A stretch of DNA of 64,000 bases, taken from a virus. Below are positions 528 through 25,054 of this stretch, piece by piece. Both the position numbers and the translations under genes were made by a program. The stretch is from positions 48,297 to 112,296 of IMG/VR virus record IMGVR_UViG_3300047321_000238; one strand, given 5' to 3'. Within the stretch, counting starts at the first letter, position 1. Each line of letters opens with the position of its first letter. The notes beneath the pieces are model-generated. The model had not been told where the DNA came from. It did no database searches and saw only the letters and a list, made by a program, of their open reading frames with translations.

Positions 528-1097
528 TTAGTTATACATTATATTGTATGTCTCTATGCCTGCTAGGAAGAAATGTACATGAGTAGGAAAAGTAGAAGTT
601 ACTACATTAAGCATCTCATCATTAGTAGAATCATTTGTGTTATAATCATCAAAGAACACTTCTGGATTCATTCTAAATCCTAATAAGTTTTGTGAGTTGT
701 TATTATAGAAGTATATAATTGTACCAAAATTAAATTCGATACTATATCTATTATGTCTAACAACTTGTCCCATAAGATCTGAACGATTTAATAGTTCTAT
801 CATTGCTTCTTTCATATAACGACATTGATTATTTGTTCTACTTATAATAAGCTTAGTGTTATGTGTTTGATTTAAGAATATGCTTTGATATACTTTTAAG
901 AGCAAGGCAGTAGATGTACCACTTTGTCTTGGTTGAGCCGCATACATTGTTTGTGAATTACTAGCAGTCTCAGCTATCAAAACATCTAATTGATAATCAT
1001 TTAAATAATACCCACATAAACGTCTTAGGTTTTCCCTTCTTCTGTTATATCTATATTCCTCAGTTTGCATATCTTGTACTAATTTTAATATCTCCAT
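528..1097 (-). CDS. hypothetical protein (189 aa from second ATG; N-terminus MEILKLVQD)
   Basis: Track ORF 528..1118. The internal ATG at 1097 is preceded by GGAGGA, so it is the likelier start. Contains AAQPRQSGTST, a degenerate P-loop-like string. Confidence 0.5.
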   Translation of the reverse strand: MEILKLVQDMQTEEYRYNRRRENLRRLCGYYLNDYQLDVLIAETASNSQTMYAAQPRQSGTSTALLLKVYQSIFLNQTHNTKLIISRTNNQCRYMKEAMIELLNRSDLMGQVVRHNRYSIEFNFGTIIYFYNNNSQNLLGFRMNPEVFFDDYNTNDSTNDEMLNVVTSTFPTHVHFFLAGIETYNIMYN

Positions 1098-1133
1098 AAC
1101 GTAACATCCTCCAAACATTTAATTAATAGCTAT

Positions 1134-1961
1134 TTATTGACCATATGCTTTTTGTTGACCATATAATTCTGAGTTACTCATTTGGCCGCCTCTACCAAAC
1201 ATCGAGAATATTAATCCCCCACCAACTGCTATAGGTATAGCTTGTTTCAAGAACGAATCCATTTTACCTTGAGTCTGTTTTTGCTCTTCCTTTTTTGTAC
1301 TTTTTATTTGATTCTTTAATTGATCGTTATTTTCTGCATACATTTTTCTTAAAACTTCAGGATCTTTTATATTTACAGGACCATGATCTGGTATTTTTGG
1401 GCCAAAATGCTCTTTTGGAATTGTATTATTAAATTCATTCATAAAATTAACTCTGCCAGTTCTCATAGTGTCAGCAATATTTTCTGAAGATCTTCCATTT
1501 AAATAACTTAATGCATTACCTAATTTAGTATCAGTAGCTGCAACGTTGTTTCTTGTTTTATTAGCTCTTAACTTACTAATTTGATAATCTAAATCAGGAT
1601 CTGCCTTACTAACTTTTAAAGTTTGTCCCATATCAGCAGCTCTTTGATTCCACATTTTTTCGTTATTTATAGTTTTTTGTTTTTTCATTGCATCATCATA
1701 AAAAGCATTTGGTCCTTTTGAATTCCTAAAAATACTTAAATCAGGTTCTTCAGTAACATTATCTAGAACATTTTTAACATACTTACTTTCATTTTGTTCA
1801 AATTTTCTTCCTTGTGACATTATAGTATGTTCTAAAGAATTTGCTTCGAATTTTTTACCCTGATTAAGTATTAATTCGCGAACTGATTTTGCTGTTCCTC
1901 TTTTTAATTCAAGATTTATTCCTTTAGTTGCAAGTTGTTCTGCAATATTTCCAAAACCCAT
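1134..1961 (-). CDS. hypothetical protein, 275 aa, Gly-rich C-terminal tail
   Basis: Track ORF with AAAGGAAG RBS. Lys/Asn-rich with a GGGLIFSMFGRGG tail. Lies in the minus-strand operon. Confidence 0.55.
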   Translation of the reverse strand: MGFGNIAEQLATKGINLELKRGTAKSVRELILNQGKKFEANSLEHTIMSQGRKFEQNESKYVKNVLDNVTEEPDLSIFRNSKGPNAFYDDAMKKQKTINNEKMWNQRAADMGQTLKVSKADPDLDYQISKLRANKTRNNVAATDTKLGNALSYLNGRSSENIADTMRTGRVNFMNEFNNTIPKEHFGPKIPDHGPVNIKDPEVLRKMYAENNDQLKNQIKSTKKEEQKQTQGKMDSFLKQAIPIAVGGGLIFSMFGRGGQMSNSELYGQQKAYGQ

Positions 1962-1990
1962 TATATTTCACTTCCTTTCTTAGCTATTAA

Positions 1991-2425
1991 TTACCTATTT
2001 AAATAAGCAGCTTCATTTCCCATTAATGTTTGTTGTAAATTGTATTGACTTGCTTTAGCCATTTGCATTCCTGCTTGTCTCATTGTGAAAGCTTGATTGT
2101 AATCATTAAAGCTAGAATTAACAAAAGGAACTTGTTTTCCTTGTTGATTCATTTGTCTTGTTAATTTACCTAATGATTCATATCCTTCTACGGCCATCTT
2201 AGGAAGTGCTGGTAGTAATTGCATTGCCATCGTTGGTACAAAACCTAATGATTGATACAATGCGAAATTTCCTACACCAGCAACTGTTGCTCCTAATCTA
2301 CTTGAACCACCTTCTCTTGCAGTCTTGTAGTCAGATGCAGCAAAAGCAACGTCCATACCAACACCAATCATTGAACCAAGACCTATCTTTTCTAAAGCAC
2401 CTTTTGCAAAAGGGATCTTCGCCAT
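1991..2425 (-). CDS. hypothetical Gly/Ala/Met/Gln-rich protein, 144 aa
   Basis: Track ORF with AGGAGG RBS 8 nt upstream. Composition resembles small virion or internal proteins. Confidence 0.55.
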   Translation of the reverse strand: MAKIPFAKGALEKIGLGSMIGVGMDVAFAASDYKTAREGGSSRLGATVAGVGNFALYQSLGFVPTMAMQLLPALPKMAVEGYESLGKLTRQMNQQGKQVPFVNSSFNDYNQAFTMRQAGMQMAKASQYNLQQTLMGNEAAYLNR

Positions 2426-2436
2426 ATTATTTCCTC

Positions 2437-3066
2437 CTATCTATTTTTGAACATAGAGAATACTAAGTCTCCAGTTGCACCTGCATTGTTTGAATAACTT
2501 CCTCCACTAGATTGTTGTTGTACTGGAACTATTGGTGTAGCATTTCTTATTATTCCATCATTAGTTCCCATTCTACTTTTCTCAAAAGCACTTACTCCAT
2601 CAGCAAGACCTTTAAATGCAGATGCTCCAAGTATTAATGGAATAGCAGTTGCTTTATTTAATTTAAATTCTCCTAAGTCTCCTAAGCCAACTGGACCTTT
2701 TGGAGCTTTTATCATTCCTCTACCAACAGTGCCTAATGCGTTTACACCAATCATTGCAGCACCAGCTACACCCAAAGCAGCACCTGAAGCTACAGTTGCT
2801 CCACCAAATGCTGCAAGTCCTGCTCCCCATGCTGCTCCTCTACCAGCAGCTTTTCTTGGATCAACTTGACCATCTTGATCTGCAAGTACTGCACCAGCAG
2901 TAGCTCCAGCTAACACTGTTCCTACTACGGCAGCAGCACGATTATCAAATTGATGCATTAGAGATTTTCCTGGTACTTTAGCTATATCCATACTAATCTC
3001 TCCAACAGCACGAGCAGAACCTAAACCTAATTTACCTATACCTTTTAATATACCACCTAAGCCCAT
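2437..3066 (-). CDS. hypothetical Gly/Ala-rich protein, 209 aa
   Basis: Track ORF with AAGGAG RBS. Long Ala/Gly stretches (AVVGTVLAGATAGAVLA...GAALGVAGAAMIG), possibly membrane-active or structural. Confidence 0.55.
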   Translation of the reverse strand: MGLGGILKGIGKLGLGSARAVGEISMDIAKVPGKSLMHQFDNRAAAVVGTVLAGATAGAVLADQDGQVDPRKAAGRGAAWGAGLAAFGGATVASGAALGVAGAAMIGVNALGTVGRGMIKAPKGPVGLGDLGEFKLNKATAIPLILGASAFKGLADGVSAFEKSRMGTNDGIIRNATPIVPVQQQSSGGSYSNNAGATGDLVFSMFKNR

Positions 3067-3082
3067 AAGCTATTTCATCTCC

Positions 3083-3427
3083 TTATACAAATGGAACTCC
3101 TACTAAATTAGTACTACCGTTACCATCTTTATATATTCCACCACCAGTTAATACTCGTCCTGCGGCAGCTGCTCCTAAATAAGATCCAGCTATTTTACCA
3201 GCATCCCACTTAGTAACTTTACCTTCTGTATCGAAATTTTTACCGAAGGTCTTTGTTAATGATTCCATTCCTTCTCCTCGTAAGGCTCTGCCTGCAGCTT
3301 CTAATCCACCAAAGCCATTGTTAGCTATAGCATTAATAGCTTTATTAGATCCATTTCTTTTTGTACCATTATATGCTGCTTTAACTAGTGCGGCAGCTTC
3401 TTTAGCAGCATCATCGTATAAACCCAT
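3083..3427 (-). CDS. hypothetical Gly/Ala-rich protein, 114 aa
   Basis: Track ORF with AAGGAG RBS. Composition similar to 2437..3066. Confidence 0.55.
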   Translation of the reverse strand: MGLYDDAAKEAAALVKAAYNGTKRNGSNKAINAIANNGFGGLEAAGRALRGEGMESLTKTFGKNFDTEGKVTKWDAGKIAGSYLGAAAAGRVLTGGGIYKDGNGSTNLVGVPFV

Positions 3428-3447
3428 ATTAATTCACTCCTTCTTTA

Positions 3448-4149
3448 TTAATTTTGTTCTTTGACATCTACAAACTCTGCAGGAGCTTCATCGATTATGA
3501 ATTCTGCATTACCTGACATAACTGTATTAATCATATCAGTTAACGAATCCTTATCACTAATCTCACCTTTCTTATTCTTTCTAGTAGCAAGCATTAAATC
3601 ATATATCTCATTTCTTTTTCTTTCTGTTCTTTCTAATGCTTCCCAATGTTTTGATATCTCAGGTTTGAAATAAACCTCACCTTGTTCACTAACACCAGCA
3701 AATACATCTTCTACTAGAACGCCTGCTTTATTAAGTAAGGCTTTGCATCTCTCAATCATAATGTCGTGATTAATTAATGATATAACTAAATTCTTATCAG
3801 TGAAACTTGCATCTTCTAGATCAAAGTCATTTTCATATCCAGCATATCGTAACTCAATTTGGGCCGTCTCTACTGGACACGGTTCACCAAGTGGTGCCAA
3901 ATTATATGGAAGCAAACTACAAGTTTCTGCATACGGACATCCGTCAGCTTTACAACTAAGCGGTATTCTAGCATACATTCCCGTTTTTGTAGATAACATA
4001 CTCATAGCAGCTCTTTTAGCTTCAACTCCTACAGCAGAGTAACCCCACATATTTTCTAAGTTCTTTTCAAAGTTTTCTCTATTTATCATAGCCTCACACT
4101 GAGTATCATCTACAGCTAAATCAGATTGTAATACTTCTTCTTCATCCAT
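3448..4149 (-). CDS. hypothetical acidic protein with Cys4 cluster, 233 aa
   Basis: Track ORF. Its ATG overlaps the stop of the upstream gene (ATGA at 4149). Contains CKADGCPYAETC...CPVE, a putative Zn-binding cluster. Confidence 0.55.
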   Translation of the reverse strand: MDEEEVLQSDLAVDDTQCEAMINRENFEKNLENMWGYSAVGVEAKRAAMSMLSTKTGMYARIPLSCKADGCPYAETCSLLPYNLAPLGEPCPVETAQIELRYAGYENDFDLEDASFTDKNLVISLINHDIMIERCKALLNKAGVLVEDVFAGVSEQGEVYFKPEISKHWEALERTERKRNEIYDLMLATRKNKKGEISDKDSLTDMINTVMSGNAEFIIDEAPAEFVDVKEQN

Positions 4150-4565
4150 TATTTATCACCACCAGTCTCTTCTTCTATTTCCTCTACCTTGACCATACCC
4201 TTATACTGTGGTCCGATATCTCCCATAATAGGATGTTCATCTTTATACATTTCATCTTCGATCATTTTCATCTCAGAAGGATATAGTATAAATTTAGCAC
4301 CATCTTCTTCAATTCCTAAGATTTCTAATTTAGTACAAGTGAAATAATATCCTATATTATAATCATCACTTCCGAAACTTTCTTGATATACTTCTACTCC
4401 AGTCAATTTAAATCTCTTTGTTTGTATTGAAGTAATGTCATCAAAGTACAGATGTGTCAAAATAATACCTTGAATCTTAAATCCTGATCTATCCTCATTA
4501 GGTACTCTATCAAATGTCACTTTTCCATTTACAGAAAGATCATTGTTTATTATTATGTTTGCCAT
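4149..4565 (-). CDS. hypothetical acidic protein, 138 aa
   Basis: Track ORF with AAGGGGGA RBS. First gene of the minus-strand operon. Confidence 0.55.
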   Translation of the reverse strand: MANIIINNDLSVNGKVTFDRVPNEDRSGFKIQGIILTHLYFDDITSIQTKRFKLTGVEVYQESFGSDDYNIGYYFTCTKLEILGIEEDGAKFILYPSEMKMIEDEMYKDEHPIMGDIGPQYKGMVKVEEIEEETGGDK

Positions 4566-5098
4566 GTTAAATTCCCCCTTGTTCTTTTCTTTTCTCTATA
4601 TATTACTATCTATATCTCATATATTAATAACGTCTTGCCATATATTACTTATTCTAAATATTCTATTTAATTTCCAAATATTACCTTATATAGAGATGAA
4701 AAATTTATAAAAAATAATTTTAAAAAATAGAAAAGTTGAACTTTTAAAAAAAGCCTATAGGGAAAAACGAAAAATATAAAAAATTTCTAGGGGAAGTAGG
4801 TATATATATATATGTATATATGTTGAAAATGTAGCCCCATGGGTATCATTATCATTATCAAGTTGAACTGTTTCAGTAACCGAGTTGAATGGAATAACAT
4901 GCAACGTCATGCCACAACTCATGGAGGATCATGAAAAACTTATCTCTATCTGTCAAGATAACCTTAACTTTAAAAGACTTATTAATAACTAGTACAGTAA
5001 AGGCTTATATATGTGCATACATATATAGGTCTTATAGTGTACTAGATACACAAGCAATAGACTACATATAGTAGGTGAGCATAAGGAGGACAACTAGT
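4566..5098. promoter_or_regulatory. divergent AT-rich control region between the minus-strand and plus-strand gene blocks
   Basis: 533 bp with no ORFs. Contains ATATATTAC direct repeats and a (TA)n tract at about 4800-4830. Genes diverge from it on both strands. Confidence 0.4.
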
Positions 5099-5554
5099 AT
5101 GACAACTTTATCAATGGAGGCTTTAATGAGCTTAAGCAAAGAAGAATTAGCAAGAATGGTTATGGACTTACACAAAGACACATTAACAGGATGTTATAAA
5201 AGAGAAGTATTAGATACAGTGAAACAAGACTTATACACTGTAGCGTTTGTTGATGTTAATGGATTAAAGGCTATTAATGATACACAAGGTCATGAGTATG
5301 GAGATAAGCACATACTAAGTGTAGTAGATAGTATCAATGCTAATGTAAGGAAACAAGATACTGTAGTTAGGTATGGTGGAGATGAATTCATAATCATATT
5401 CAATGACTGTAGTATAGACAATGCTAAAGGTGCTATATCTAGGATAACATCTGCATCAGTGGGTATAGCACAACATACAGACTTAGATATGGCAATTAAA
5501 CTAGCTGATATGGACATGTATAAGAACAAAAGAAACTACTATGATGTAGTATAG
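5099..5554 (+). CDS. GGDEF-domain diguanylate cyclase-like protein (no sensor domain)
   Basis: Start taken at the ATG 9 nt after AAGGAGG. Motifs FVDVNGLKAINDTQGHEYGDKHIL and RYGGDEFIIIF match the GGDEF active-site region. Confidence 0.7.
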   Translation: MTTLSMEALMSLSKEELARMVMDLHKDTLTGCYKREVLDTVKQDLYTVAFVDVNGLKAINDTQGHEYGDKHILSVVDSINANVRKQDTVVRYGGDEFIIIFNDCSIDNAKGAISRITSASVGIAQHTDLDMAIKLADMDMYKNKRNYYDVV

Positions 5555-5582: not shown

Positions 5583-5840
5583 ATGAAAACAACAAAGAAT
5601 GAAGCATTACTTATACTAGCACAAAGGATAATGGATCAACGTATTAAGCCTATGATAGATAAGGCTATTAGTATGGACCATGATAGTAAGCCTATAGCAT
5701 ATAGACCTGAATTAGACAATAACGATTATGCTGAATACATAGCATCTAAGGACAAGACATTAGTACACATAAATAAACACACACGAAAGGATGATGAAAC
5801 ATGCATTACTACGAATACAACGATACAGAGGACAAGATAA
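5583..5840 (+). CDS. hypothetical protein, 85 aa
   Basis: Track ORF with AGGATG RBS-like sequence upstream. Confidence 0.4.
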   Translation: MKTTKNEALLILAQRIMDQRIKPMIDKAISMDHDSKPIAYRPELDNNDYAEYIASKDKTLVHINKHTRKDDETCITTNTTIQRTR

Positions 5841-5992
5841 TCCACTTACTAGTAGCAGCAATAGGAGAAGGCTTATATAAACAAGCTATATCAGAATGTG
5901 CTATAGAGTATGGACAAGCAACAACAGATAAAGCAGTAACAGTATTTAATGAACAATACGCTAACTTAATCAGATTAATAGGAGGAAGATAA
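5801..5992 (+). CDS. hypothetical protein, 63 aa
   Basis: Track ORF with AAAGGATGA upstream. Overlaps the previous ORF by 40 nt, so one of the two starts is probably misplaced. Confidence 0.35.
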   Translation: MHYYEYNDTEDKIIHLLVAAIGEGLYKQAISECAIEYGQATTDKAVTVFNEQYANLIRLIGGR

Positions 5993-5993
5993 C

Positions 5994-6263
5994 ATGGAAA
6001 ACAGAAGAATAGAGGCAATCATGTATATGAAATTCAACAATAACGATAAAAGAGGTGCTTTATTACAAGCTAATAAGAAAGGGGTAGTAGTAGTGGACAA
6101 GCCATTTAAAGAAGTACTAAAACAAGTAGTTATAGAAAGTGCCCATATAGTAGAGGTAGCACCTATAGTAACTCATACAGAAGAAGTAGAAATAACGTTA
6201 TTATGGCAATCTCAAATACATGCTAATTACCTAAAACAAAGAGGAGGAAAACAAAATGATTAG
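5994..6263 (+). CDS. hypothetical protein, 89 aa
   Basis: Track ORF with GGAGGAAG RBS at 5982. Confidence 0.45.
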   Translation: MENRRIEAIMYMKFNNNDKRGALLQANKKGVVVVDKPFKEVLKQVVIESAHIVEVAPIVTHTEEVEITLLWQSQIHANYLKQRGGKQND

Positions 6264-6576
6264 GAAGAGCAAAACAATATTCAAATTCTTTATGAACAAG
6301 TACAATTTAGACTTATCAACTACAAAAATCTATATAATTGATCTTGTAGGAAAGAATGGTGCTTATGATTATATAGAAGATGAAGTCTATATAGATCATA
6401 CTTTAAATGCAATAACTAGAGAACTAACATTAGTACATGAACTTACTCATAAGATTGTTTATGTACTAGAGTTAGATGTTATAGATGAAGAAGCATATTG
6501 TAAAGAAGTTACATTAGAATACGTCAAACAAGAATTTAATGAAGTAGCTGTAACTTTAGTAAAAAATGAAATATAG
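6256..6576 (+). CDS. small HExxH zinc-metallopeptidase-like protein (ImmA/IrrE-like motif)
   Basis: GAGGAGG RBS. HELTH at LTLVHELTHKIV. Confidence 0.4.
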   Translation: MIRKSKTIFKFFMNKYNLDLSTTKIYIIDLVGKNGAYDYIEDEVYIDHTLNAITRELTLVHELTHKIVYVLELDVIDEEAYCKEVTLEYVKQEFNEVAVTLVKNEI

Positions 6577-6588
6577 GAGGAATTAATA

Positions 6589-6789
6589 ATGATGAAAGTA
6601 AAAGAAATAAAAACAGAACGCGTATCAAGAGAATATGTAGTTGAACAATTTGGTGAAGAAGAAGTAGCCAGAATGGAAAGAGATTGGATGTTAGGTGTCA
6701 AAAGAAAATTAGTTAAACATTCTCTTAGCACAAGAATAAAAAGAAAAGTAGTTGATTTAATTAATAGCTTATTAAACAAATTAATTTAA
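6589..6789 (+). CDS. hypothetical protein, 66 aa
   Basis: Track ORF with AGGAGG RBS. Confidence 0.4.
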   Translation: MMKVKEIKTERVSREYVVEQFGEEEVARMERDWMLGVKRKLVKHSLSTRIKRKVVDLINSLLNKLI

Positions 6790-6892
6790 TGTAGGGAATA
6801 AGGAATATGGAGAGATCTGTATTCCTTTTATCGTGCATTAAAGCACATTGGTTAGCTGTAATCCTTAATATAGCAAGAAAAGGAGAACAATT

Positions 6893-7183
6893 ATGATAAA
6901 GTACAAGGACCTAGATTCATTGGAAGGAGTTGAACTTGAGAAGGCTATTTTTGAAGTAAATCTAAATAGCATTAATGAGTTAACTCAAGAACAAAAAGCA
7001 ATCTTGTGTAAAATCAATTACAAGAAAGCAGAAGCTCAAGAACCAGAATCAGAAGTAATGTCATTGGTTGATCTAATCAGCAGTAAGTTATTCAAAAAGA
7101 AAAAGTTCAATCAAAAGAAAACAGACCTTAAAGACAGGTTACAAGGTTGTATTAAACCAATAAAAAAAGAAGGAGAGATGTAA
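6893..7183 (+). CDS. hypothetical protein, 96 aa
   Basis: Track ORF with AAAGGAG RBS. Confidence 0.45.
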   Translation: MIKYKDLDSLEGVELEKAIFEVNLNSINELTQEQKAILCKINYKKAEAQEPESEVMSLVDLISSKLFKKKKFNQKKTDLKDRLQGCIKPIKKEGEM

Positions 7184-7184
7184 T

Positions 7185-7721
7185 ATGTCAATATTAATCG
7201 TGCTAGCTATGATATGCATTATTATGGCTACAAAAGAAATCAGGAAAGAAAAAGCTCATAATAAAAAAAGAAAGGAAATCAGAAGTAAAAAACAATTAAC
7301 TTCAGTTCCAGTAGATGCTGTAGATAAGTTAAATGCATTCTTAGAAGTAGATAAGTCTAAGGATAAAGAATTTAAATTAGCTGCACTGTTTATAGAAGAC
7401 GAATCAGGACACATATCTATTGAAGATGTAGATCTTAGAGGAGATTCAGCTGAAAACATTAAGTTATCAGATTATGCTATTAATAAAAAGAAATATATAG
7501 CTGATCAAATACTATTTAATAGTAATGCTGTTAAGTTAATAGCTAATAAAGTTAATAGTATGGTAGCTGACACTGAAAGATACTATGCATTCGAAATAAC
7601 TAAAGAGAATGTGGAAGCAGGAAGACATGGAAAAACAAAGAAGAAGATAGTAAATGATTTTGTTATGTTATTAGATTTAAATGAAAAGGAACTTAAGAGA
7701 ATTGCTAATCTAAGTTTCTAA
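7185..7721 (+). CDS. hypothetical membrane-anchored protein, 178 aa
   Basis: N-terminal hydrophobic helix ILIVLAMICIIMA. GGAGAG RBS. Confidence 0.5.
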   Translation: MSILIVLAMICIIMATKEIRKEKAHNKKRKEIRSKKQLTSVPVDAVDKLNAFLEVDKSKDKEFKLAALFIEDESGHISIEDVDLRGDSAENIKLSDYAINKKKYIADQILFNSNAVKLIANKVNSMVADTERYYAFEITKENVEAGRHGKTKKKIVNDFVMLLDLNEKELKRIANLSF

Positions 7722-7749
7722 TGTAAAAGGTGAAAGGTGGATAAACAAA

Positions 7750-8367
7750 ATGGAAAACATCAATAAGAATTTAGACTTCATGGACTTAACAGGAAACGTA
7801 AAGGATATGAGAATTATCAATAATACACAAGTTGGTATATTCTCTGTTGTGCAAAAGCATTTAACAGAATCATATTTTCACACATCAAGAGGATATATCA
7901 AAGTTGATCCTGTTGTATCTATAATATGTGTTGAACATGCTAAAGGTAAAATGGAACTATTAGCTGGAATCAAGATGTTAGAAACAGTCCAAATGATTAA
8001 CTATTTGATTGAAAAGAATTTCACAATTGCTGAACTTCCTACAGAAGTTGCAAAGATCAGAAACTACAGAGCTATTATAAGAACTGTAGAAAATAAGTTG
8101 AAGTTCGAAGCTAAACAATTATTAGTAGCTAAAGAAGCAGAGAATAAAGAAATAGAGAATAAAGAAATAGAAACTACTGTAGTTGTTGAACCAATCAAAA
8201 AACAACTTCCTAAGATGAAGACTCTTTCTGATATACCTTCATATAGAGAAGTTGCTTTAACAGTTGAAGAAAAGAAGATAATGCAAAGCATTGTTCACAC
8301 TAAAGATATAGCATCATCTTTCTTCAACAAAAGTAAAATAATCAATATCTTTAGCAAAACTAAATGA
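7750..8367 (+). CDS. hypothetical protein, 205 aa
   Basis: Track ORF with GGTGAAAGGTGG RBS. Internal ENKEIENKEIE repeat. Confidence 0.5.
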   Translation: MENINKNLDFMDLTGNVKDMRIINNTQVGIFSVVQKHLTESYFHTSRGYIKVDPVVSIICVEHAKGKMELLAGIKMLETVQMINYLIEKNFTIAELPTEVAKIRNYRAIIRTVENKLKFEAKQLLVAKEAENKEIENKEIETTVVVEPIKKQLPKMKTLSDIPSYREVALTVEEKKIMQSIVHTKDIASSFFNKSKIINIFSKTK

Positions 8368-8419
8368 TAGATTATATACGTACTAAAGACAAATAAACTC
8401 CACCAGACCTTAGCAAGCA

Positions 8420-8900
8420 AATTCGCTTGAAAGGAGGTGATGCCTGGCAAGATATACGAACTTGGGTAGGCTGCTTGAACATGTTGTGCTTTTGATGCAG
8501 CAACAGTTGGTTGGGTGGGACAGAAACACAACAATGGGGGATGAAATAAACAGATTTCACTAACGAAAGGAAGAAACAAACAGAATGATATTTTCAAAAC
8601 TAAAGACGCTAAAGGAAGACTCGGCAAATTACCAACAACTATTCAGCCTGGAGGTTGATGAATTAAATTTTCTTCAATCTCTAGAAAGGAGGTTGATAAT
8701 CTAAATTTTTATCAGCCACCGAAAAGGAGGTTGGTAAGGATTATGACGTAACTTTACACATATCATTTAAGGAGGTTGATACTCACACATGGACTAATAT
8801 TAAAGGAGATGATGCTTGGCAAGAAATAGAAATGACTATAAATATGAAAGGAGGTGATGCTAAATCTAAGACTAATAAGACTACTGAAGGATTGTTCGTA
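8420..8900 (+). repeat. cluster of seven Shine-Dalgarno-like repeats (AAAGGAGGTGATGC x3, AAGGAGGTTGAT x4) with mini-ORFs
   Basis: Direct reading: 8431, 8800 and 8845 carry the GGAGGTGATGC type. 8645, 8686, 8721 and 8768 carry the GGAGGTTGR type. No ORF longer than 30 codons on the + strand. Local GC is elevated. Confidence 0.5.
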
Positions 8901-8927
8901 ATCTTTCAATGCATGGGCCTATAGTAT

Positions 8928-11900
8928 TTGAACTTAGGCACTATGAGTGACAGGGATAATGGGGTACAAATAAAAATATATGATGAAAAGGATGGATACA
9001 AAATGATAAACACAAACACATTAACTAATGGAACTACTACAACAAACACAAATGAAGGGATGGATGTACAAATGGTAAATATCAATGTAACAAACGTAGC
9101 TAAAATAGTAGGGGTATCAAATGAAGAAGTTGTAGCATTAGCTATAAGATTAGGTTTAGAAGTTTCAACATCAGGTAAGAAAATAAACAATGTTATTTCT
9201 ACTGCAATTGTAGTTGAAGCTGTTAATGATTTAATAGCTAAAGATGAAGTTGCAGTTACAAATATAGTAAACAATAATGAAGGGATGGATGTAAAAATGG
9301 TTAACAAGATTAAAGAGGAAATAATGGAAATGGTTTATTCTGAAATGAACAAGGAAATAGCTAAACAAGAAATTAGAGACGAATACTTAAACAGAGTTGC
9401 AACTGTTGCAGCTATAGTTGATGAATCTAATAAAAAGTACAAAAGAAATACTTTAAGCAAAGTAGAATTAGTTGATTATGTAGTAGCTAACAATATCGAA
9501 GTTAATGACAAAGAATTAAGAGCACTATATTCTCAATTAAATGCTGCAAGAGATAAAGAAGCTAAATCAGAATTAGTTCACAAGATCATAGATCAAATGA
9601 ATGAAGGTAAATTCACTTATAAAATGTATGCAACTGCTAATAAGTACAAGCACCTTTTATCTGAAGATGATACAATTACTTTTGAATTAGCATTAGATGT
9701 AGCTCTTAATAAGGCTTCTATGAAGAACTACAAGAACCTATTAGCTGTTAAAAGATGGACTAAAGATATCACTGTTGCATTATTAAGAAGAGTTGTTTGC
9801 TATACTGGTAATCAATATGAAACAGAAGTAGCTCCTCAAATGTTCAGTTCTCTAATCAGAGCTTGTGATGTTACAGTTAAAGATGTTGCAGATTCTAAGA
9901 TGACTTTAAATGGATACACTACTGATGAGTTACTATTATTCTCATTCGATAAAGATGTATTAAAATTAACTGGAAATAATGACAGAGAAGTATTAGCTAA
10001 AAAAGATTACCTAGCTAAAGTATTCTATATCATTGCTGGATTATCTGAACAAAAGGTTTATATAGTTGAAAGAAAATCAGGTATTGCAGATGTTTATACT
10101 AATATCAACAAGATCAAATTAAATGAAGGTGAAGTTATAAAACAATATGAATTCTTAGGAATAACTCCATCTGGTTTAAGATCTGGAACTATGACATTAG
10201 CTATCACTAAAGAAATTCACGCTGATGGAACTGTTGTTGAAAGAGATAGAAGAGTTGAAATCATGGACAAAGCTTCTGATAATTCATTCAGCATTAACTT
10301 TATCGTAGGTGCGAATGAAAATGGACAAGCTATATTCAAAGATTGCGAATCAGTACTTGATGCATTTAAAGAAATGTCTAGAATGATGTTATGTGCTACA
10401 TCTTCAAAAGTGCTTGGTAAATTAGACTCTTATGTTGTATTAGATAATTTATCTTTTGGTGCAGGATATAATGCTAAAGATACTAACTCTCCTGCTAAAA
10501 TGGGTGAAGAAAATTTCGTAGATTGTCAAGATACTACTGATGGTTTAGGATTAATATCTAATGATATGTTAAAAGAAAATCTTCAAGCTATGAACATTCC
10601 ATGCTCAATTAAAGACTTATTAGGAATGACATTCCAAGCTAGAGGTGGCGGATTAAAGATTGCTGCAATGTCAAGATCTAAAGAAGCTATTAGACTAGAA
10701 GCAAAAGCATCATTAAGCAGAGGAGCATCTGTATTAAGAGCTGTATTCAAAGGACAAGAAGTTAAAGCTAAAGATCTAACTGATGAAATGTTAGATAACA
10801 TGCAAGGATTGTTTGATGGTAATGGTATGAAGTTAATCGATCACAATGCTGAAATCGAATTAGTAATGCTTAAGAAAGCTTATTCATCTGACTCTAAATT
10901 ATCTGATGTTGTTAATATTATAATGATGGTTAATGATGAACAAGCTACTACAGCATTATTATCTTCTAAAATAAAAAGTCAAATCTTAGACAAATTAAAA
11001 GACATTGGTATAAACGTAGATTACAATGCAGAAACTGATGAAGTTATCAGCGTAAAATGTGATCTTAAGAACTTAAAAAGAATCAACAATGACAGTCAAA
11101 CAGTTGAATGGATGTTTAGATCTCTTCCTGAAACTATGATTGCATTAGCTCCTGGTGTTCAAAAGACAAACTTTAATAGCTTATTGAAAGGTTTAGCTAA
11201 CCTAATCAACGAGCTTAATGTTGAAGTTAATTGTGAATATACTGTTGTTCAATCAGATCCAGCAGTTAGATTTGGTGTAAGAATAATAAAAGAAGATGAA
11301 GTATTCTGCCCAAGCTTAATAGAAGTAAATAAAGTATCAGGTGTTAGACATCCAGTATCAAACTTATTTGCTGTTTCTACATTCAAGACACTTACTCTAA
11401 AAACTATCTTAAAGAGAATTGATAAATTGAATGTATCTCTTGAAGTTAAAAACATGTTATTTGAATTCTACAAAGGAGTAGAAGGTTATGCTATAATACC
11501 AGCATCTCACTACTACATGGAAAAACATGATGGAATGGATTTCGATATCGATGCTATGCAATTTTTCTTAGATCAAGAAGTAGTAGCAATACTTGAAAAG
11601 ACTTCTGATATAGGAACAATAATTGATAGATCTATTGATGAAGAAATGGATTGTTCTATTAAGGAATCTAATGATGACCATGCTATCAAAGCTTTCTACA
11701 AAGATATTAACAAGAAAGATTTCCACCCTATAGCTTATGATGTAAAAGTATCTGAAGAAAAGATAGCACCAGTTAAAGCATTAAAAGGAATGGTTATGCC
11801 TAAGAAGATTAATGTTGCTTCTACTGAAGATAATCATTACAAGAAAAATGCAAATGGAAGATACTCATTAGACTTCTCTTCAGTTGCTATGATGGTATTA

Positions 11901-13946
11901 GATTATTTCTTAAACCCAATAGATTCAGTTGGTATCATGGCAACAAACTTCTATAATAATGCTAAAATACTTATGGCATTAAAATCAATTAACACTGAAA
12001 TCACTAAAGAAATGAAACAATTCATAGTTCAAGGAATGAGAACAATGTTTTCTTGTAGTGGTTTAAAGAAGTATTCTTCTCCAATCAGAAAGAACAATGA
12101 CGGAACAAAATTTAACTACAACGATAGAAATAAAGTTGTTCTATGCAAAGATGTTTGTCACAAAATAATCAAAACATTTATCAACTCTAAAGGAGATTTT
12201 GCAGATTGTATTCAATTCTTAATTGATGTATGTATTTGTAGTAGATATCCAGCTGAAACTTCTATTGATAGTGCTAAGAAAATGTATAAAGTTATAAACA
12301 TGTTTGCATTATCTGGTTGTATTAAAGCTATGGGTTGTAAAAATGCTGTTAAATTCTTAAACTTTGATCCATATATGTTAGATGACCAAGGTAACTCTAT
12401 TGAAGAAGTAGAAACTACAAAAGCATTCACTAACATTATTGACATCTTTAATGCAGCTCAACCAAAAAATGCTCTACAATATTCAACAAACAATTTCTTT
12501 GGATTAAAATTAATAAAAGAAGAAATGTCATGTGTTGGTTGGGAAGATGCTGATAAGGCTATGTTAGCTTTCAATACAGAGAAAAAAGTAGCAGGTATTA
12601 AAGATCCTACTTATCTATTAAAAGAAAGACTAATGAACTTTGCTAATTCAGTTATAGTATTTGCAGCTAAAGAATTAGAAGCATTTGTTAAATCAGATGA
12701 AGCTAATGCTATCAGAAAAGAATTCAAAGGTTTCTACAATTCAGAAGATAATTATTTCAGAGTTGATAAAGTAGTATCTAACATCGTTGGTACTTATATC
12801 ACATTAACTGAATCAATCAAAGCTTCAGAAAATGATGAAATAGATGATATAACTGCAAAGAAATATCTTAAGACAAATGCATTACAAGCTCTAATGAACA
12901 CAGCTAAACTTTCATTTAAAACAGCTAGAAAACCAGTATCTGATGAAGAAATTGGAGCAGGTGTGTTCTATTATATGATTACTTCTTTTGAAAAAGAAAA
13001 AGACAATGTATGTACTTCAGTTAACTCTAAGATTCTTGATATCTTCCAAAAAGAGATATTAGCATTCTTAAAATCTAAAGGATATGATATGCTTGCTGCT
13101 GAAGAAATATTATATGCTGTTAATCCTGTAACTAACAGACAAGTTAAATTAAATACAACAGAAGGATTAACATGTTCTGCATATAATGGTCATGGTACAA
13201 TTGAATTAGAAGATGGTTCAATCTATTTATTAACTCTAAAGAATAAGAAAGCATCTTTTGATAATGGTACTATTTCTATAGTAGATGATAAGTATGTTGT
13301 TGTTCAACAAAGAAAAACTTTAGAAGAAAATATACAATCAGGATTCTACTTTGGTGCTAAAATGGAAAAAGGAATATTCAACAAAGCTAATCTTCTAATG
13401 CAAGATATTAAAAAGACTACTGGTGATTACAATGAATACAAAGCAGCATTAGCAGAAATAAATCCTAATAACATTTTAGCTGAGACACAATATGATGAAA
13501 TTCTTTTCAGAACAAGAAGAGAAATGGACGAAAGAGGAAAATCATATACAGCTAATCTTTTAATTGGTATGAAAGATGATCAAGAATGTTTAATAGCTGA
13601 GTTATACCTTAATACAATCGTTGCTCAATTATTACAAACTGCTGAGTTATCTGAAAGCAATGTAAGATTATTCATGACTGAAAATAGTTGTACTGTTAAC
13701 ATTATTGAAGACTCTCTATTAGCTGAAGTTGAATCAGTTAGCACTCCTGACACTATAAGTGATTCATTTGGATTAGATGACTTAGAAGGATTCAGTAACT
13801 CAATAATAGATTATTCTTGTTATGATGTTACTCCAGTTCAAGAAAACTATGATGAAAAACAATTCGTTGCAATTACAACAAACTACGATATTCCTCAAGT
13901 TGACATGTGCAATGACGAAAACTATTTAAATGGTTTAACTCAATAA
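8928..13946 (+). CDS. giant protein, 1672 aa, with a DFDID (DxDxD) motif; candidate two-barrel RNA polymerase-like enzyme
   Basis: Single uninterrupted ORF, track start TTG at 8928 (alternative ATGs at 8943 and 9004). Motif HDGMDFDIDAMQ resembles the beta-prime NADFDGDQM Mg-binding loop. Direct repeat NEGMDV[QK]MVN near the N-terminus. Confidence 0.8.
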   Translation: MNLGTMSDRDNGVQIKIYDEKDGYKMINTNTLTNGTTTTNTNEGMDVQMVNINVTNVAKIVGVSNEEVVALAIRLGLEVSTSGKKINNVISTAIVVEAVNDLIAKDEVAVTNIVNNNEGMDVKMVNKIKEEIMEMVYSEMNKEIAKQEIRDEYLNRVATVAAIVDESNKKYKRNTLSKVELVDYVVANNIEVNDKELRALYSQLNAARDKEAKSELVHKIIDQMNEGKFTYKMYATANKYKHLLSEDDTITFELALDVALNKASMKNYKNLLAVKRWTKDITVALLRRVVCYTGNQYETEVAPQMFSSLIRACDVTVKDVADSKMTLNGYTTDELLLFSFDKDVLKLTGNNDREVLAKKDYLAKVFYIIAGLSEQKVYIVERKSGIADVYTNINKIKLNEGEVIKQYEFLGITPSGLRSGTMTLAITKEIHADGTVVERDRRVEIMDKASDNSFSINFIVGANENGQAIFKDCESVLDAFKEMSRMMLCATSSKVLGKLDSYVVLDNLSFGAGYNAKDTNSPAKMGEENFVDCQDTTDGLGLISNDMLKENLQAMNIPCSIKDLLGMTFQARGGGLKIAAMSRSKEAIRLEAKASLSRGASVLRAVFKGQEVKAKDLTDEMLDNMQGLFDGNGMKLIDHNAEIELVMLKKAYSSDSKLSDVVNIIMMVNDEQATTALLSSKIKSQILDKLKDIGINVDYNAETDEVISVKCDLKNLKRINNDSQTVEWMFRSLPETMIALAPGVQKTNFNSLLKGLANLINELNVEVNCEYTVVQSDPAVRFGVRIIKEDEVFCPSLIEVNKVSGVRHPVSNLFAVSTFKTLTLKTILKRIDKLNVSLEVKNMLFEFYKGVEGYAIIPASHYYMEKHDGMDFDIDAMQFFLDQEVVAILEKTSDIGTIIDRSIDEEMDCSIKESNDDHAIKAFYKDINKKDFHPIAYDVKVSEEKIAPVKALKGMVMPKKINVASTEDNHYKKNANGRYSLDFSSVAMMVLDYFLNPIDSVGIMATNFYNNAKILMALKSINTEITKEMKQFIVQGMRTMFSCSGLKKYSSPIRKNNDGTKFNYNDRNKVVLCKDVCHKIIKTFINSKGDFADCIQFLIDVCICSRYPAETSIDSAKKMYKVINMFALSGCIKAMGCKNAVKFLNFDPYMLDDQGNSIEEVETTKAFTNIIDIFNAAQPKNALQYSTNNFFGLKLIKEEMSCVGWEDADKAMLAFNTEKKVAGIKDPTYLLKERLMNFANSVIVFAAKELEAFVKSDEANAIRKEFKGFYNSEDNYFRVDKVVSNIVGTYITLTESIKASENDEIDDITAKKYLKTNALQALMNTAKLSFKTARKPVSDEEIGAGVFYYMITSFEKEKDNVCTSVNSKILDIFQKEILAFLKSKGYDMLAAEEILYAVNPVTNRQVKLNTTEGLTCSAYNGHGTIELEDGSIYLLTLKNKKASFDNGTISIVDDKYVVVQQRKTLEENIQSGFYFGAKMEKGIFNKANLLMQDIKKTTGDYNEYKAALAEINPNNILAETQYDEILFRTRREMDERGKSYTANLLIGMKDDQECLIAELYLNTIVAQLLQTAELSESNVRLFMTENSCTVNIIEDSLLAEVESVSTPDTISDSFGLDDLEGFSNSIIDYSCYDVTPVQENYDEKQFVAITTNYDIPQVDMCNDENYLNGLTQ

Positions 13947-13956
13947 TATCAACATT

Positions 13957-13993
13957 AGAGTCTCATTAATTTGAGGCTCTTTTTATTTTAAAT
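13957..13993 (+). terminator. rho-independent terminator downstream of the giant gene
   Basis: AGAGUCUCA-UUAAUU-UGAGGCUCU forms a 9-bp stem (one G-U pair) followed by UUUUUAUUUU. Confidence 0.55.
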
Positions 13994-14010
13994 TTGAAAG
14001 GATGATTATA

Positions 14011-15102
14011 ATGAAAACAATTAATAACAAACAATTAGAAACAGGAAAGAAAATAGTAAATCAATTAGGAGTTAACAAAACTGCTATAGCACTAACTCAT
14101 TATAATGTAGAAAAGAACAATATTGATATCAGAATGTTTTTGTACTCAGATGAAGACATTACAATATATACAACTGGTAGATTGTTTTTAGGAACATATA
14201 AAAAGGAAGATAAAAAGTTCTCATTCGATCCTGCTACTAAACTACCTTATGTTGTAGGATGCAATAACATTAAGACTCGTAGAGAAGTTAAGGATGCTAT
14301 TAAGAAAGTATTATCTACTCATGCAGATGTATTAAAAATGAGTAATGGATACAAAAACTTAATTAATGATGTAGAGGATGTTTTACTTTATGTTATCAAG
14401 AGTGGAATTATTAAAGGCAGCTACTTACCACTTGAGGCACAACTAAAACATAATTGGATCATGAATCCAGACACAATAATTGTAGAGGGTGAGTCAGTAG
14501 CTAAACATGAAATAGCAGTAACAACAGATACTAATACAAAAACAGAAGGAGAAGTCAAAATGAATATAATGAGTGCGGCACATAAACTAAGAAAAGAAAT
14601 GGAAATAGAAGATAAAGAATATGCATCTTACAGCTATAAACTTAAAATGAAGATTGCATTAAAGTATGCATGGGATACATGTCATATTAATAAAGTAGTA
14701 GCTATTAAAGAAGTAGCTATTACTGTAGATAAAGTGATAAACATAAATACACGTAGACCAGAGCCAACAGCTAAGGATGAAGTTATGGCAAGTAAGCTTG
14801 AACCATTAACAGCTAAGTGCGACAATGGCAAGAAAAGAATCAAAGGAGAAACTTATATTGTATCCACACCAGGACACGTTAATATAGAAGATCACATTGG
14901 AACAGTGATTAAGGCTTTTGATATATCCACTCAAATATTAGGCAGAAAAACATTAGCTGAGTTAAATGTGAAATTCACTGAAAGAAAGTTTGCAGAGAGC
15001 AGATTTTACAGAGAGAATGCACATAAGTTAATTATTGTTACTAGCCATAAAGATGAATATGAACAAATTAAAAACCCAAGAGGATTTATACTTGTTAAAT
15101 AG
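14011..15102 (+). CDS. hypothetical protein, 363 aa
   Basis: Track ORF 14002. The ATG at 14011 follows AAAGGA, so it is the likelier start. Confidence 0.55.
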   Translation: MKTINNKQLETGKKIVNQLGVNKTAIALTHYNVEKNNIDIRMFLYSDEDITIYTTGRLFLGTYKKEDKKFSFDPATKLPYVVGCNNIKTRREVKDAIKKVLSTHADVLKMSNGYKNLINDVEDVLLYVIKSGIIKGSYLPLEAQLKHNWIMNPDTIIVEGESVAKHEIAVTTDTNTKTEGEVKMNIMSAAHKLRKEMEIEDKEYASYSYKLKMKIALKYAWDTCHINKVVAIKEVAITVDKVININTRRPEPTAKDEVMASKLEPLTAKCDNGKKRIKGETYIVSTPGHVNIEDHIGTVIKAFDISTQILGRKTLAELNVKFTERKFAESRFYRENAHKLIIVTSHKDEYEQIKNPRGFILVK

Positions 15103-20303: not shown

Positions 20304-20636
20304 ATGGAAGTATTAAAGTATATTAATGATACGTTAGTATCATATACATTAGCTGAACTATATGATAATAGAATAGGAATATCTGTAAGTAACGTAGAAG
20401 AGTTTATAGACATAATCGATAAATTAGATGCAACAGGTTTAGTGTATATGCCTACCGATGTAAAACGAGATAAGGTAGCATTGTACAATAGAGGTACAAG
20501 TAAAAATAGTTGTATATTAATAGAAAGAAGACCTGACCTAGGTAAATGTGAATATATATTAAGGTATTATTCAGAAGACTATGTAACTATGTATGCTGGC
20601 ACTATAAAGAAGTATAGTGAGGTGACATTAGTATAA
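20304..20636 (+). CDS. MELLKYIN-leader family small protein (MEVLKYIND)
   Basis: Conserved N-terminus. AAAGGA RBS. Tandem with the following family members. Confidence 0.65.
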   Translation: MEVLKYINDTLVSYTLAELYDNRIGISVSNVEEFIDIIDKLDATGLVYMPTDVKRDKVALYNRGTSKNSCILIERRPDLGKCEYILRYYSEDYVTMYAGTIKKYSEVTLV

Positions 20637-20956
20637 TGGAGTTGTTAAAGCATATTAATGATATGGCAAATACGTATACTATAAGTAAGCTGTTAAATAC
20701 AAACGCTATAGTACAGTGTGATAGTAAAGAAGAGTTTATGCAGTTAATATATAAGATAAACTGTACATCGTATCTACATACAACCCTTAGTGGTAGTACA
20801 TGGGATATTTATAATAACCAGGATAGATATAATGGAAGTATGGCAATATACTTTAACAGTAGACATCTAGAGTTTTGTTACGTAGATTATTATAAAACAT
20901 ATAGACGTAAGAACCCTAAGTATAAGTATAGTGAAGTAAATATAGTAACTATATAG
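20636..20956 (+). CDS. MELLKYIN-leader family small protein (MELLKHIND)
   Basis: Conserved N-terminus. TAATG overlap with the upstream gene. Confidence 0.65.
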   Translation: MELLKHINDMANTYTISKLLNTNAIVQCDSKEEFMQLIYKINCTSYLHTTLSGSTWDIYNNQDRYNGSMAIYFNSRHLEFCYVDYYKTYRRKNPKYKYSEVNIVTI

Positions 20957-20965
20957 AGTATGCAG

Positions 20966-20996
20966 AGTTTTTCTTCTGCACGCGAACATATGTTTA
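20966..20996 (+). promoter_or_regulatory. palindrome-containing intergenic element copy 1 (GTTTTTCTTCTGCACGCGAACATATGTTTAT)
   Basis: Contains the perfect palindrome AAACATATGTTT. Repeats at 23149 and 23498. Confidence 0.4.
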
Positions 20997-21023
20997 TTAT
21001 ATGAAAGGAGATTAAGCAAGTCT

Positions 21024-21371
21024 ATGAGTATAGAGTTATTAGATTATATAAATAAGAATAGTAAAAAGTCTTATACTATACAACAGATGATAGATGATAA
21101 GATAGCAATTCAAGTATGTAGTAGAGAAGAGTTGCAAAATCTTATAGATATAAGAAGTAGTCATGGTTGTATTGGGTGTACAGTAGAATCATGGGATACG
21201 TATGTAATAAAATATAACAAAAAGAGATATAATGGTCGGATGTGTTTAGCATTTCAAAGACCAGGATTTCTTGATTTCTGTGATACAGGATATTATCTAA
21301 ACCAAGGATATACTATAGTGCCTTATACAAGTCTAGTTATAATAGATAGTGATAAGGTGGTGTTAATATAA
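21024..21371 (+). CDS. MELLKYIN-leader family small protein (MSIELLDYINK)
   Basis: Family N-terminus shifted by 2 aa. C-terminal Y-L-N-Q-G-Y-T-I motif shared with other members. Confidence 0.6.
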   Translation: MSIELLDYINKNSKKSYTIQQMIDDKIAIQVCSREELQNLIDIRSSHGCIGCTVESWDTYVIKYNKKRYNGRMCLAFQRPGFLDFCDTGYYLNQGYTIVPYTSLVIIDSDKVVLI

Positions 21372-21688
21372 TGGAAGTATTAAGTCATATTAATAATATA
21401 CAAAGGTTTAGTATGTCAGACTTTATAGATAAAGGATATGTAATAAAGGTATGTCATAGAGCTGGACTAGAAGCTATAGTAGAGTATTTAGATAATCATG
21501 GTGTAGAAGTTAACGATGATATACGTGGAGCTGATGATAGAAGATGTGAATACTTATGTTTAAGACTAGGAGGATGGACAGATAAGAGTGGTAACATAAC
21601 AGGTTATTGTGCATGGCAAGCAAACTATGAACACTATAAGAGTAGAGGATGTACTATGTACGATTATGATGAGGTGGTGTTAGTATAA
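21371..21688 (+). CDS. MELLKYIN-leader family small protein (MEVLSHINN)
   Basis: Conserved N-terminus. TAATG overlap with the upstream gene. Confidence 0.65.
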   Translation: MEVLSHINNIQRFSMSDFIDKGYVIKVCHRAGLEAIVEYLDNHGVEVNDDIRGADDRRCEYLCLRLGGWTDKSGNITGYCAWQANYEHYKSRGCTMYDYDEVVLV

Positions 21689-21689
21689 T

Positions 21690-22022
21690 ATGGAGTTATT
21701 AAAAGAAGTAAATGAATTTAATAAGTATAGAATACGAGATATAATACGTAATAGCATGGATATATTAATACATACACCTAAGGAAGAAGACTTAATTATA
21801 TTATATAACAAGTTAATTGAATTAGGATATATAATAAGTGATCACATGTTGCATATATATAGTTCGTATAAAGAAGAGACATGTATAAGATTCTATAAGT
21901 ATACTAGTCAAAGTAGTGTAGCAAATGAATTAGGAATGAGTTATGCTGATAAACCATGGTATATCGAGAATGAAAAACAAATGAAGATAATAAACATGGG
22001 GGACATAGTATGGAAGTATTAA
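21690..22022 (+). CDS. MELLKYIN-leader family small protein (MELLKEVNE)
   Basis: Conserved N-terminus. Confidence 0.6.
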   Translation: MELLKEVNEFNKYRIRDIIRNSMDILIHTPKEEDLIILYNKLIELGYIISDHMLHIYSSYKEETCIRFYKYTSQSSVANELGMSYADKPWYIENEKQMKIINMGDIVWKY

Positions 22023-22512: not shown

Positions 22513-22519
22513 AAATATC

Positions 22520-23142: not shown

Positions 23143-23148
23143 ACAACG

Positions 23149-23170
23149 GTTTTTTCTTTGCACGCGTAAT
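23149..23170 (+). promoter_or_regulatory. intergenic element copy 2 (GTTTTTTCTTTGCACGCGTAAT)
   Basis: Shares TTTTTCTTTGCACGCG with copies 1 and 3. The palindrome half is missing. Confidence 0.35.
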
Positions 23171-25051: not shown

Positions 25052-25054
25052 TTT

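Follow-up and report, generated by a model that had tools for sequence, protein, structure and literature searches.

The DNA examined here (the window) is a 64,000-nucleotide stretch of IMG/VR virus record IMGVR_UViG_3300047321_000238 (positions 48,297 to 112,296), and our subject is the plus-strand gene at positions 5099 to 5554, which encodes a short protein with a GGDEF domain, P0001. The genes upstream of it (528 to 4565) lie on the minus strand, in a block that reaches the genes for the large terminase and Cpn10 in a longer contig copy (L001). From 5099 to 64000, essentially all large open reading frames (ORFs) lie on the plus strand. The gene for P0001 is thus the first of the plus-strand block and stands beside a divergent control region, as a preliminary description of this DNA had stated. 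The observation made there, of a GGDEF protein at the head of this block, was confirmed, and the interpretation placed on it found only partial support. On the evidence set out below, we think it reasonably likely that P0001 is an active synthase of cyclic diguanylate (c-di-GMP), minimal in build and lacking an input domain.

We placed the start of the gene at the ATG at 5099 because a ribosome binding site (RBS) lies 8 nt upstream and all homologues begin at an equivalent point; a GTG at 5075 was set aside on the same grounds. The gene limits given in the preliminary description therefore stood, and the product length of 152 amino acids (aa) did not: there are 152 codons counting the stop, and the protein has 151 aa (16.9 kDa, pI 5.1). 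An identical protein is encoded on two further contigs, one from JGI (247,883 bp) and one from Logan (108 kb). INPHARED contained no near-identical phage genome, and the phage has no close relative among the isolates sequenced. The nine genes that follow (5583 to 15102) have essentially no Pfam or PHROG match.

P0001 matched the Pfam GGDEF profile (PF00990) with 74.5 bits (cutoff, 23.8; E = 1.1e-20), TIGR00254 with 71.7 bits (cutoff, 37.4; E = 5.7e-20), and phrog_5594 with an E value of 5.9e-29, placing its GGDEF domain match far beyond chance. An AlphaFold2 (AF2) model made with 33 homologues as input had a predicted local distance difference test score (pLDDT) of 94.4 and a predicted template modeling score of 0.84. 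When the model was compared with the Protein Data Bank (PDB) by Foldseek, the top 50 matches were all diguanylate cyclase GGDEF domains (E = 4e-11 to 2e-8), among them TM1788, SiaD, DosC, SadC, WspR, PleD, and DgcB; the closest solved structure by sequence was the Thermotoga maritima cyclase domain 4urg/4urs. With canonical GGDEF domains (TM1788 4urg/4urs, DosC 4zvf, DgcZ, PleD, and WspR), the model shares its fold (Foldseek E = 4e-11 to 1e-8; template modeling [TM] scores of 0.66 to 0.79), its active site (A-site), its metal- and guanine-binding residues, its phosphate-binding lysine, and the position of its inhibitory site (I-site). P0001 differs from these domains in being about 40 residues shorter within the domain, in having tyrosine in place of the arginine at PleD R446, and in carrying no sensor or receiver domain.

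Before the domain, which begins at D-x-LTG, there are only about 25 residues, forming two short helices, in agreement with the earlier statement that there is no input domain. The domain itself is trimmed and not a full GGDEF domain. Compared with Escherichia coli DgcZ in an alignment, P0001 lacks about 8 residues of helix α1, an α3-β4-β5 segment of about 17 residues that includes the β4-β5 hairpin, 3 residues that follow β6, and the GRN strand at the C terminus. Because of this trimming, the Pfam alignment spans only profile positions 29 to 104 of 161, and the AF2 model contains four main strands, short of a complete GGDEF fold. The missing α1, β4-β5, and C-terminal parts lie away from the GGDEF active site, so catalysis need not be lost with them. 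The N-terminal motif L..(L/M)(S/T)K(E/D)EL..(M/L)V..L.KD is conserved in the subfamily and recognizable in the phage protein YuA gp44. Since the TM scores of the model were highest against cyclases crystallized with stalk helices (SiaD, GCN4-WspR, and DgcB), the natural reading is that the N-terminal helix is probably a dimerizing stalk.

The residues expected of a working cyclase are kept, with the exception of the second phosphate-binding arginine. In an alignment of 12 subfamily members, with 34 to 51% identity to P0001, 24 columns were invariant. The motif RYGGDEFIIIF occupies residues 91 to 101 (positions 5369 to 5401), and R91 and G93-G94-D95-E96-F97 are invariant, bearing out the intact active-site motif of the preliminary description. 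D52, N60, and D69 fall opposite their counterparts in DgcZ, TM1788, and DosC; D137, Y141, and K144 of helix α4 are invariant; and R35, nearly invariant within a D-x-LTG-x-x-x-R motif, aligns with the arginine that stacks on guanine across the dimer. We take D52, N60, and D69 to correspond to PleD D327, N335, and D344 and K144 and Y148 to correspond to PleD K442 and R446. The catalytic and substrate-binding residues line up with those of E. coli DgcZ and, apart from the first glycine of the motif, are also kept in YuA gp44. Since the residues for catalysis, metal binding, and guanine binding are all present and invariant, P0001 is best read as an enzyme of c-di-GMP synthesis.

In enzymes of this type, the glutamate at the fourth position of GGDEF (E96 in P0001) is the general base, an aspartate facing the Watson-Crick edge together with an arginine at the cross-dimer position specifies GTP, and Hypr GGDEF proteins, which have serine or threonine at the former position and a residue other than arginine at the latter, make cyclic GMP-AMP (cGAMP) (PMC6456294). 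The suggestion that P0001 might be a variant making a different cyclic dinucleotide is therefore unlikely: D69 is neither serine nor threonine and the cross-dimer R35 favors guanine, and on these two residues we rejected a Hypr-type cGAMP synthase. Judged by these residues, the product is very probably c-di-GMP. The intact A-site likewise does not fit a degenerate GGDEF receptor or ATPase of the PelD, CsrD, or GdpP type.

The preliminary description had the inhibitory RxxD site as apparently absent and envisaged a constitutive enzyme flooding the host with c-di-GMP. We found a canonical I-site, R84-K-Q-D87, which aligns (HMMER) with RRSD of TM1788 in 4urg, the I-site mutant 4urq having ARSD there. 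D87 is invariant, and RxxD is canonical in 8 of the 12 aligned members; three others have glycine, serine, or histidine for the arginine, and a one-residue insertion in a fourth gives RxxxD. With such a site, product inhibition is expected, so the output of P0001 is probably feedback limited and "flood" is an overstatement. An intact I-site would also suit a c-di-GMP sponge, that is, a protein catalytically dead in practice whose RxxD sequesters host c-di-GMP and lowers the signal. Catalysis could be crippled by the trimming of the fold and by the lack of an arginine equivalent to R446, and the A-site of YuA gp44 is degenerate (SGDEF). However, it is the catalytic residues that are invariant among the 12 members and the I-site arginine that varies, the opposite of what a sponge would lead one to expect, and we regard this explanation as unlikely.

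P0001 is a new member of an already known phage family of short, trimmed, GGDEF-only proteins. Such proteins have been annotated in phages since 2008, and the kind itself is not novel. Among 1.84 billion cluster representatives, only 7 proteins matched P0001 with an E value below 1e-30, mostly of 144 to 156 aa, with two long multi-GGDEF proteins. When 185,579 genomes of bacteria and archaea (GTDB) were scanned with the family profile, the only matches had 30 to 44% identity, some over as few as 68 residues; these matches are apparently ordinary GGDEF proteins. To date, the subfamily with at least 44% identity to P0001 has come only from contigs that are viral or metagenomic, and this distribution indicates that phages have long maintained it under purifying selection. 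A tblastn search of 50,697 phage records with P0001 matched 155, including Clostridium perfringens phage Clo-PEP-1 (gp61, 146 aa) and the Yuavirus/Vojvodinavirus phages (gp44 of Pseudomonas phage YuA, 156 aa).

Clo-PEP-1 gp61 (with relatives in CP3, CPD4, P21, and A2-H1) and YuA gp44 resemble P0001 in size, in having the same three deletions, in having a similar helix motif directly before D-x-LTG, in lacking an input domain, and in lying among nonstructural genes. They are just 30 to 36% identical to it, and whereas P0001 has a perfect GGDEF motif and RxxD, YuA gp44 has SGDEF with no RxxD and the Clo-PEP-1 protein has HxxxD. Unlike these two, the subfamily with at least 44% identity has so far been seen only on large uncultured phage contigs, usually beside a giant ORF with a DxDxD motif. 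The record of YuA gp44 states that it [quoted passage not shown] and a Bordetella phage paper speculated about biofilm.

P0001 is shorter than any canonical domain and is encoded by an accessory gene that the nearest syntenic phages lack, features that would fit a GGDEF gene captured from a host and now decaying without a function. Against this, the same trimming and the same N-terminal motif are kept in phages of 27 to 44% G+C and in Pseudomonas phages, the fold is predicted with high confidence, the RBS is strong, and the G+C content of the gene is adapted to that of the phage (33% versus 29%). We therefore consider such decay very improbable.

Table 1. Features of the gene for P0001, its surroundings in the window, and related loci
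Feature	Position	Strand	Evidence and remarks
Mini-GGDEF gene (P0001)	5099..5554	+	ORF and RBS, Pfam GGDEF, AF2, Foldseek; 151-aa putative diguanylate cyclase
A-site hairpin R91-Y-G-G-D-E-F97	5369..5389	+	Read from sequence; invariant in 12 members
β1 to helix α2: D52 (metal), K57, N60 and D69 (guanine)	5252..5305	+	Invariant in 12 members
K144, phosphate-binding lysine, helix α4	5528..5530	+	Invariant in 12 members
I-site R84-K-Q-D87 (RxxD)	5348..5359	+	Spacing to GG downstream: exactly 5 residues
N-terminal helices, aa 6-10 and 14-24	5114..5170	+	DSSP on AF2 model; putative stalk/dimerization helix
Shine-Dalgarno sequence AGGAGG	5085..5090	+	8 nt before ATG 5099; read from sequence
Divergent intergenic region	4566..5098		533 bp, AT rich; separates structural (minus) from nonstructural (plus) block
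Imperfect palindrome/hairpin, 63 nt	4986..5048	+	About 50 nt upstream of ATG; made up of inverted repeats I5 and I8; may be an operator or a leader hairpin
Giant 1647-aa ORF with single DxDxD (GMDFDID, aa 846-850)	9003..13946	+	Putative diverged two-barrel YonO/RdRP-like polymerase; predicted identity
Giant DxDxD ORF of relatives	L002 6094-9705; L007 5809-8163; L009 5238-7220 and 7863-9920; L175 5756-9937		
YhbH/DUF444-like protein	26795-27421	+	Pfam scan
SpoIIID homologue	52005-52328	+	96 bits
YyaC/DUF1256	52676-53224	+	113 bits

Related loci carrying the mini-GGDEF gene (among them L002, L007, L175, L178, and L009, a 238-kb IMG/VR relative) allowed us to compare gene neighborhoods. A giant single-DxDxD ORF lies on the same strand as the mini-GGDEF gene and within 3.4 kb of it in four loci, namely the window, L002, L007, and L009. 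These giants are mutually homologous, have 1203 to 1647 aa (785 or more in L007, at the contig end; split into 660 and 685 aa in L009), and carry the motifs GMDFDID, GMDIDFD, GLDFDFD, and GLDFDYD. In L175, the gene for P0036, the closest relative of P0001 (50% identity), starts 64 bp after that for a 1393-aa giant protein which matches the Pfam RNA-dependent RNA polymerase (RdRP) family PF05183 with an E value of 3.6e-37 and has the motif GGADCDGD. A profile of the window-type giants aligned (hhalign) with the L175 giant in register at R-x-P and DxDxD, with an E value of 0.16, which is not significant. The giant ORF of the window had no match in Pfam, PHROG, or a PDB sequence search, tblastn against phages and Foldseek were uninformative, and its AF2 model had a pLDDT of 44. 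A jumbo-phage comparative study described RNA polymerases of the YonO-like kind, with a single subunit and two barrels, from 0305phi8-36 and Clostridium phage c-st; this fits the lineage, and the window giant is probably a diverged YonO/RdRP-like polymerase.

The mini-GGDEF gene thus stands beside a giant DxDxD gene in five of the six phage loci with flanking DNA (the window, L002, L007, L009, and L175); in L178 there is no giant within 8 kb downstream, and only 0.9 kb of upstream DNA is present. This synteny would be explained if P0001 were a partner of the polymerase, providing it with pppGpG, pGpG, or c-di-GMP for priming or as an allosteric cofactor, with no host signaling. GGDEF enzymes do make pppGpG as an intermediate, and the L175 arrangement puts an RdRP homologue directly upstream of a P0001 relative. 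On the other hand, the three closest relatives of the window giant (56, 34, and 31% identity; L089 to L091) occur in the same gene order, at the same kind of divergent junction, without GGDEF, neither YuA nor Clo-PEP-1 has a giant neighbor of its mini-GGDEF gene, the shared early-region architecture of one phage lineage can account for the association, and the polymerase identity of the window giant is itself a prediction. A partnership with the polymerase is accordingly quite unlikely in our view, and an obligatory coupling of GGDEF and giant genes is weakened by the GGDEF-less loci. The simplest reading of these neighborhoods is that the gene for P0001 is accessory, circulating in the early region of this phage lineage.

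Some relatives show further features beside these genes. The giant gene of L009 is interrupted by an inserted 153-aa ORF of unknown function (7295 to 7756). On L178 and L179, contigs that carry P0039 (48% identical to P0001), the next gene (1451 to 2932 and 1548 to 3029, respectively) encodes 493 aa that by eye resemble an IS605-type TnpB/OrfB protein, and a HicAB pair lies further along. Separately, a 183-aa protein encoded at 14 IMG/VR loci (L062, L064, L071, L072, L075, L076, and L080 to L087; gene at about 9896 to 10447) is 24 to 29% identical to P0001 and has no GGDEF motif. These contigs are about 18 to 45 kb long, and at most of the loci an ORF of about 1400 aa lies immediately upstream of the gene; the protein may be a degenerate cousin of P0001 with a similar giant-neighbor arrangement.

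On its sequence relationships, the window comes from a jumbo phage whose host belongs to the Bacillota. The nearest relatives of the terminase are those of Moorella phage MTATph1 (43%) and of the Bacillus jumbo phages vB_BceM_WH1 and 0305phi8-36, and the window encodes SpoIIID, YyaC (whose homologues are metagenome proteins), and a YhbH-like protein. For these reasons, the phage very probably infects an endospore former of the Bacillota, in line with the Firmicutes host assumed in the preliminary description, and the phage, to judge from these genes, very probably meddles with the sporulation of its host. No tRNA genes were found in the window.

These properties suggest how a c-di-GMP synthase of this build might work during infection. 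Two copies of P0001 would be held together by the short N-terminal helix, each binding one GTP, with the guanine read by N60 and D69, Mg2+ held by D52 and D95, and the phosphates held by K144 and R91. E96 of one copy would activate the 3'-OH of the GTP on the other, giving pppGpG and then c-di-GMP, and binding of c-di-GMP at R84-x-x-D87 would cap the output. Because the gene heads the nonstructural block, P0001 is probably made early, from host-recognized promoters, a proposal drawn from position alone. Such a feedback-limited cyclase, the mechanism with the best support here, would then raise host c-di-GMP to a fixed, elevated level early in infection, which may push the host toward a sessile, nonmotile state and away from entry into sporulation, favoring productive infection.

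Control of host sporulation or motility by P0001 is plausible, and its specific physiological target is much less certain than its cyclase activity. In Firmicutes generally, c-di-GMP represses motility. [quoted passage not shown] A functional analogy for the proposed role is the YIP peptide, an early phage product that activates the Pseudomonas aeruginosa cyclase YfiN and so raises host c-di-GMP (PMC8085984; PMC11461919). YIP is a small peptide acting on a host enzyme, whereas the phage encoding P0001 would bring the enzyme itself.

Several observations weigh against P0001 being an active cyclase that signals to the host. D52, N60, D69, R91, K144, and R35 were all kept on careful alignment, so that the concern raised earlier over missing substrate-binding residues holds for one position only: the second phosphate-binding arginine, PleD R446, is replaced by Y148. 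The residue next after K144 is basic in 11 of the 12 members (R145 in P0001, or lysine) and valine in P0039, and this basic residue might substitute for the missing arginine. Dimerization through a helix of 11 to 19 residues is something we infer from the model, and among the structure matches found by sequence or Foldseek there was no solved or characterized cyclase with deletions of the P0001 type. In the literature searched, we found no biochemical or genetic test of any trimmed phage GGDEF protein. A Pfam search of all plus-strand ORFs of at least 120 aa in the window, plus 18 smaller ones, found no PilZ, EAL, or HD-GYP domain. Neither the window nor the P0001 leader matched any Rfam family, the c-di-GMP riboswitch included. 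With no c-di-GMP effector, phosphodiesterase, or riboswitch in the window, any target would be in the host. The closest syntenic phages (L089 to L091), finally, do not have the gene.

The preliminary description further suggested interference with cyclic-nucleotide-based immunity. P0001 would then be a counterdefense enzyme that jams, decoys, or preempts signaling by the cyclic-oligonucleotide-based antiphage signaling system (CBASS), type III CRISPR, or Panoptes-like systems, and its product might differ from 3',3'-c-di-GMP. Genes of a counterdefense kind are plentiful in the window (an Apyc1-like metallo-beta-lactamase, NAPRTase, PnuC, NadR-like, NUDIX, Macro, and NADAR). Bacterial STING effectors are activated by c-di-GMP, which counts against such a role, and no immune system blocked by c-di-GMP was found in the literature searched. 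Minimal palm-domain cyclases do act in phage-host conflicts, as does the Panoptes mCpol (PMC12657218). Hypr GGDEF proteins (GacA and Bd0367) and mCpol/OptS are, like P0001, palm-domain cyclic-dinucleotide synthases, and OptS is also minimal and without input domains; mCpol proteins, however, largely lack the GGDEF motif present in P0001 and make 2',3'-linked products (PMC12657218). The specificity residues D69, N60, and R35 of P0001 form the canonical guanine set, PADLOC gave no match, and the structural neighbors of P0001 are all GGDEF cyclases and not Cas10 or mCpol; these results, with the perfect GGDEF motif, do not fit a minimal polymerase of the mCpol/Cas10 type (Panoptes OptS). Such a polymerase is linked to an effector of the 2TM-SAVED type; the genes adjoining that for P0001 had no known-family match (Pfam and PHROG). 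A counterdefense role for P0001 therefore seems improbable to us.

Phages are known to tamper with c-di-GMP indirectly, as in the case of YIP. P0001 offers a clean candidate for doing so directly, having a perfect A-site, an intact I-site, and a mass of 17 kDa and heading the nonstructural genes of a jumbo phage in which sporulation regulators are also encoded. Activity of P0001 would show that a diguanylate cyclase can be built from about 125 residues and that a lytic phage of a spore former can set host c-di-GMP; motility, surface structures, and the sporulation decision would then probably be affected. The finding is useful but incremental, extending a known kind of protein rather than establishing a new one.

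Upstream of the gene for P0001, sites resembling sigma-70 promoters showed no excess over shuffled sequence. Folding of the leader (284 nt) was better than that of shuffled versions (z = -3.2), and the palindrome listed in Table 1 is not conserved in L002, L007, or L009. A candidate conserved promoter or leader motif, GCCCCAYSSSTAT, was rejected: the window and L002 contain it once apiece, which does not exceed chance expectation. In the early block, a small protein encoded at 6256 to 6576 (plus strand) has an HExxH metallopeptidase-like motif, LVHELTHK; a similar protein of L009 (3688 to 4137, plus strand; LLHEIGHYECGH) is encoded by the first gene past the divergent junction there. The sole match of these small HExxH-motif proteins was phrog_1233, of unknown function.

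Elsewhere on the plus strand of the window, genes at 44133 to 44861 and 55502 to 56068 encode a phage guanylate kinase and a dCMP deaminase. The guanylate kinase would help sustain guanine-nucleotide supply for a cyclase, although deoxynucleoside triphosphate synthesis is the simpler explanation. A protein with a metallo-beta-lactamase fold (33299 to 34075) matched Apyc1 (PF23023) with 35 bits, below the cutoff of 50, and is possibly a cyclic-nucleotide-degrading counterdefense enzyme of the anti-Pycsar type. Genes related to nicotinamide adenine dinucleotide (NAD+) and ADP-ribose lie at 45890 to 46312, 49798 to 51228, 53386 to 53763, 56846 to 57535, 60184 to 61257, 61258 to 61836, and 62372 to 62824. 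The families represented are NADAR, NAPRTase, YAcAr SLOG, the PnuC nicotinamide mononucleotide transporter, NadR-like AAA_28, NUDIX, and Macro, and the cluster looks like an island for NAD+ reconstitution and ADP-ribose counterdefense.

A plus-strand ATP-binding cassette transporter set (34274 to 35071, 38406 to 39035, and 40360 to 41928), unusual as phage cargo, comprises a permease (BPD_transp_1), an ATPase (ABC_tran), and an NMT1-like substrate-binding protein fused to an OmpA-type C-terminal domain. At least 15 paralogous plus-strand ORFs of about 100 to 115 aa, all starting with MELL(K/N/S)YIN and mostly in tandem, lie at 20304 to 26070, with further copies at 28573 to 28836, 42309 to 42650, and 62867 to 63154; the two that we tested had no Pfam match.

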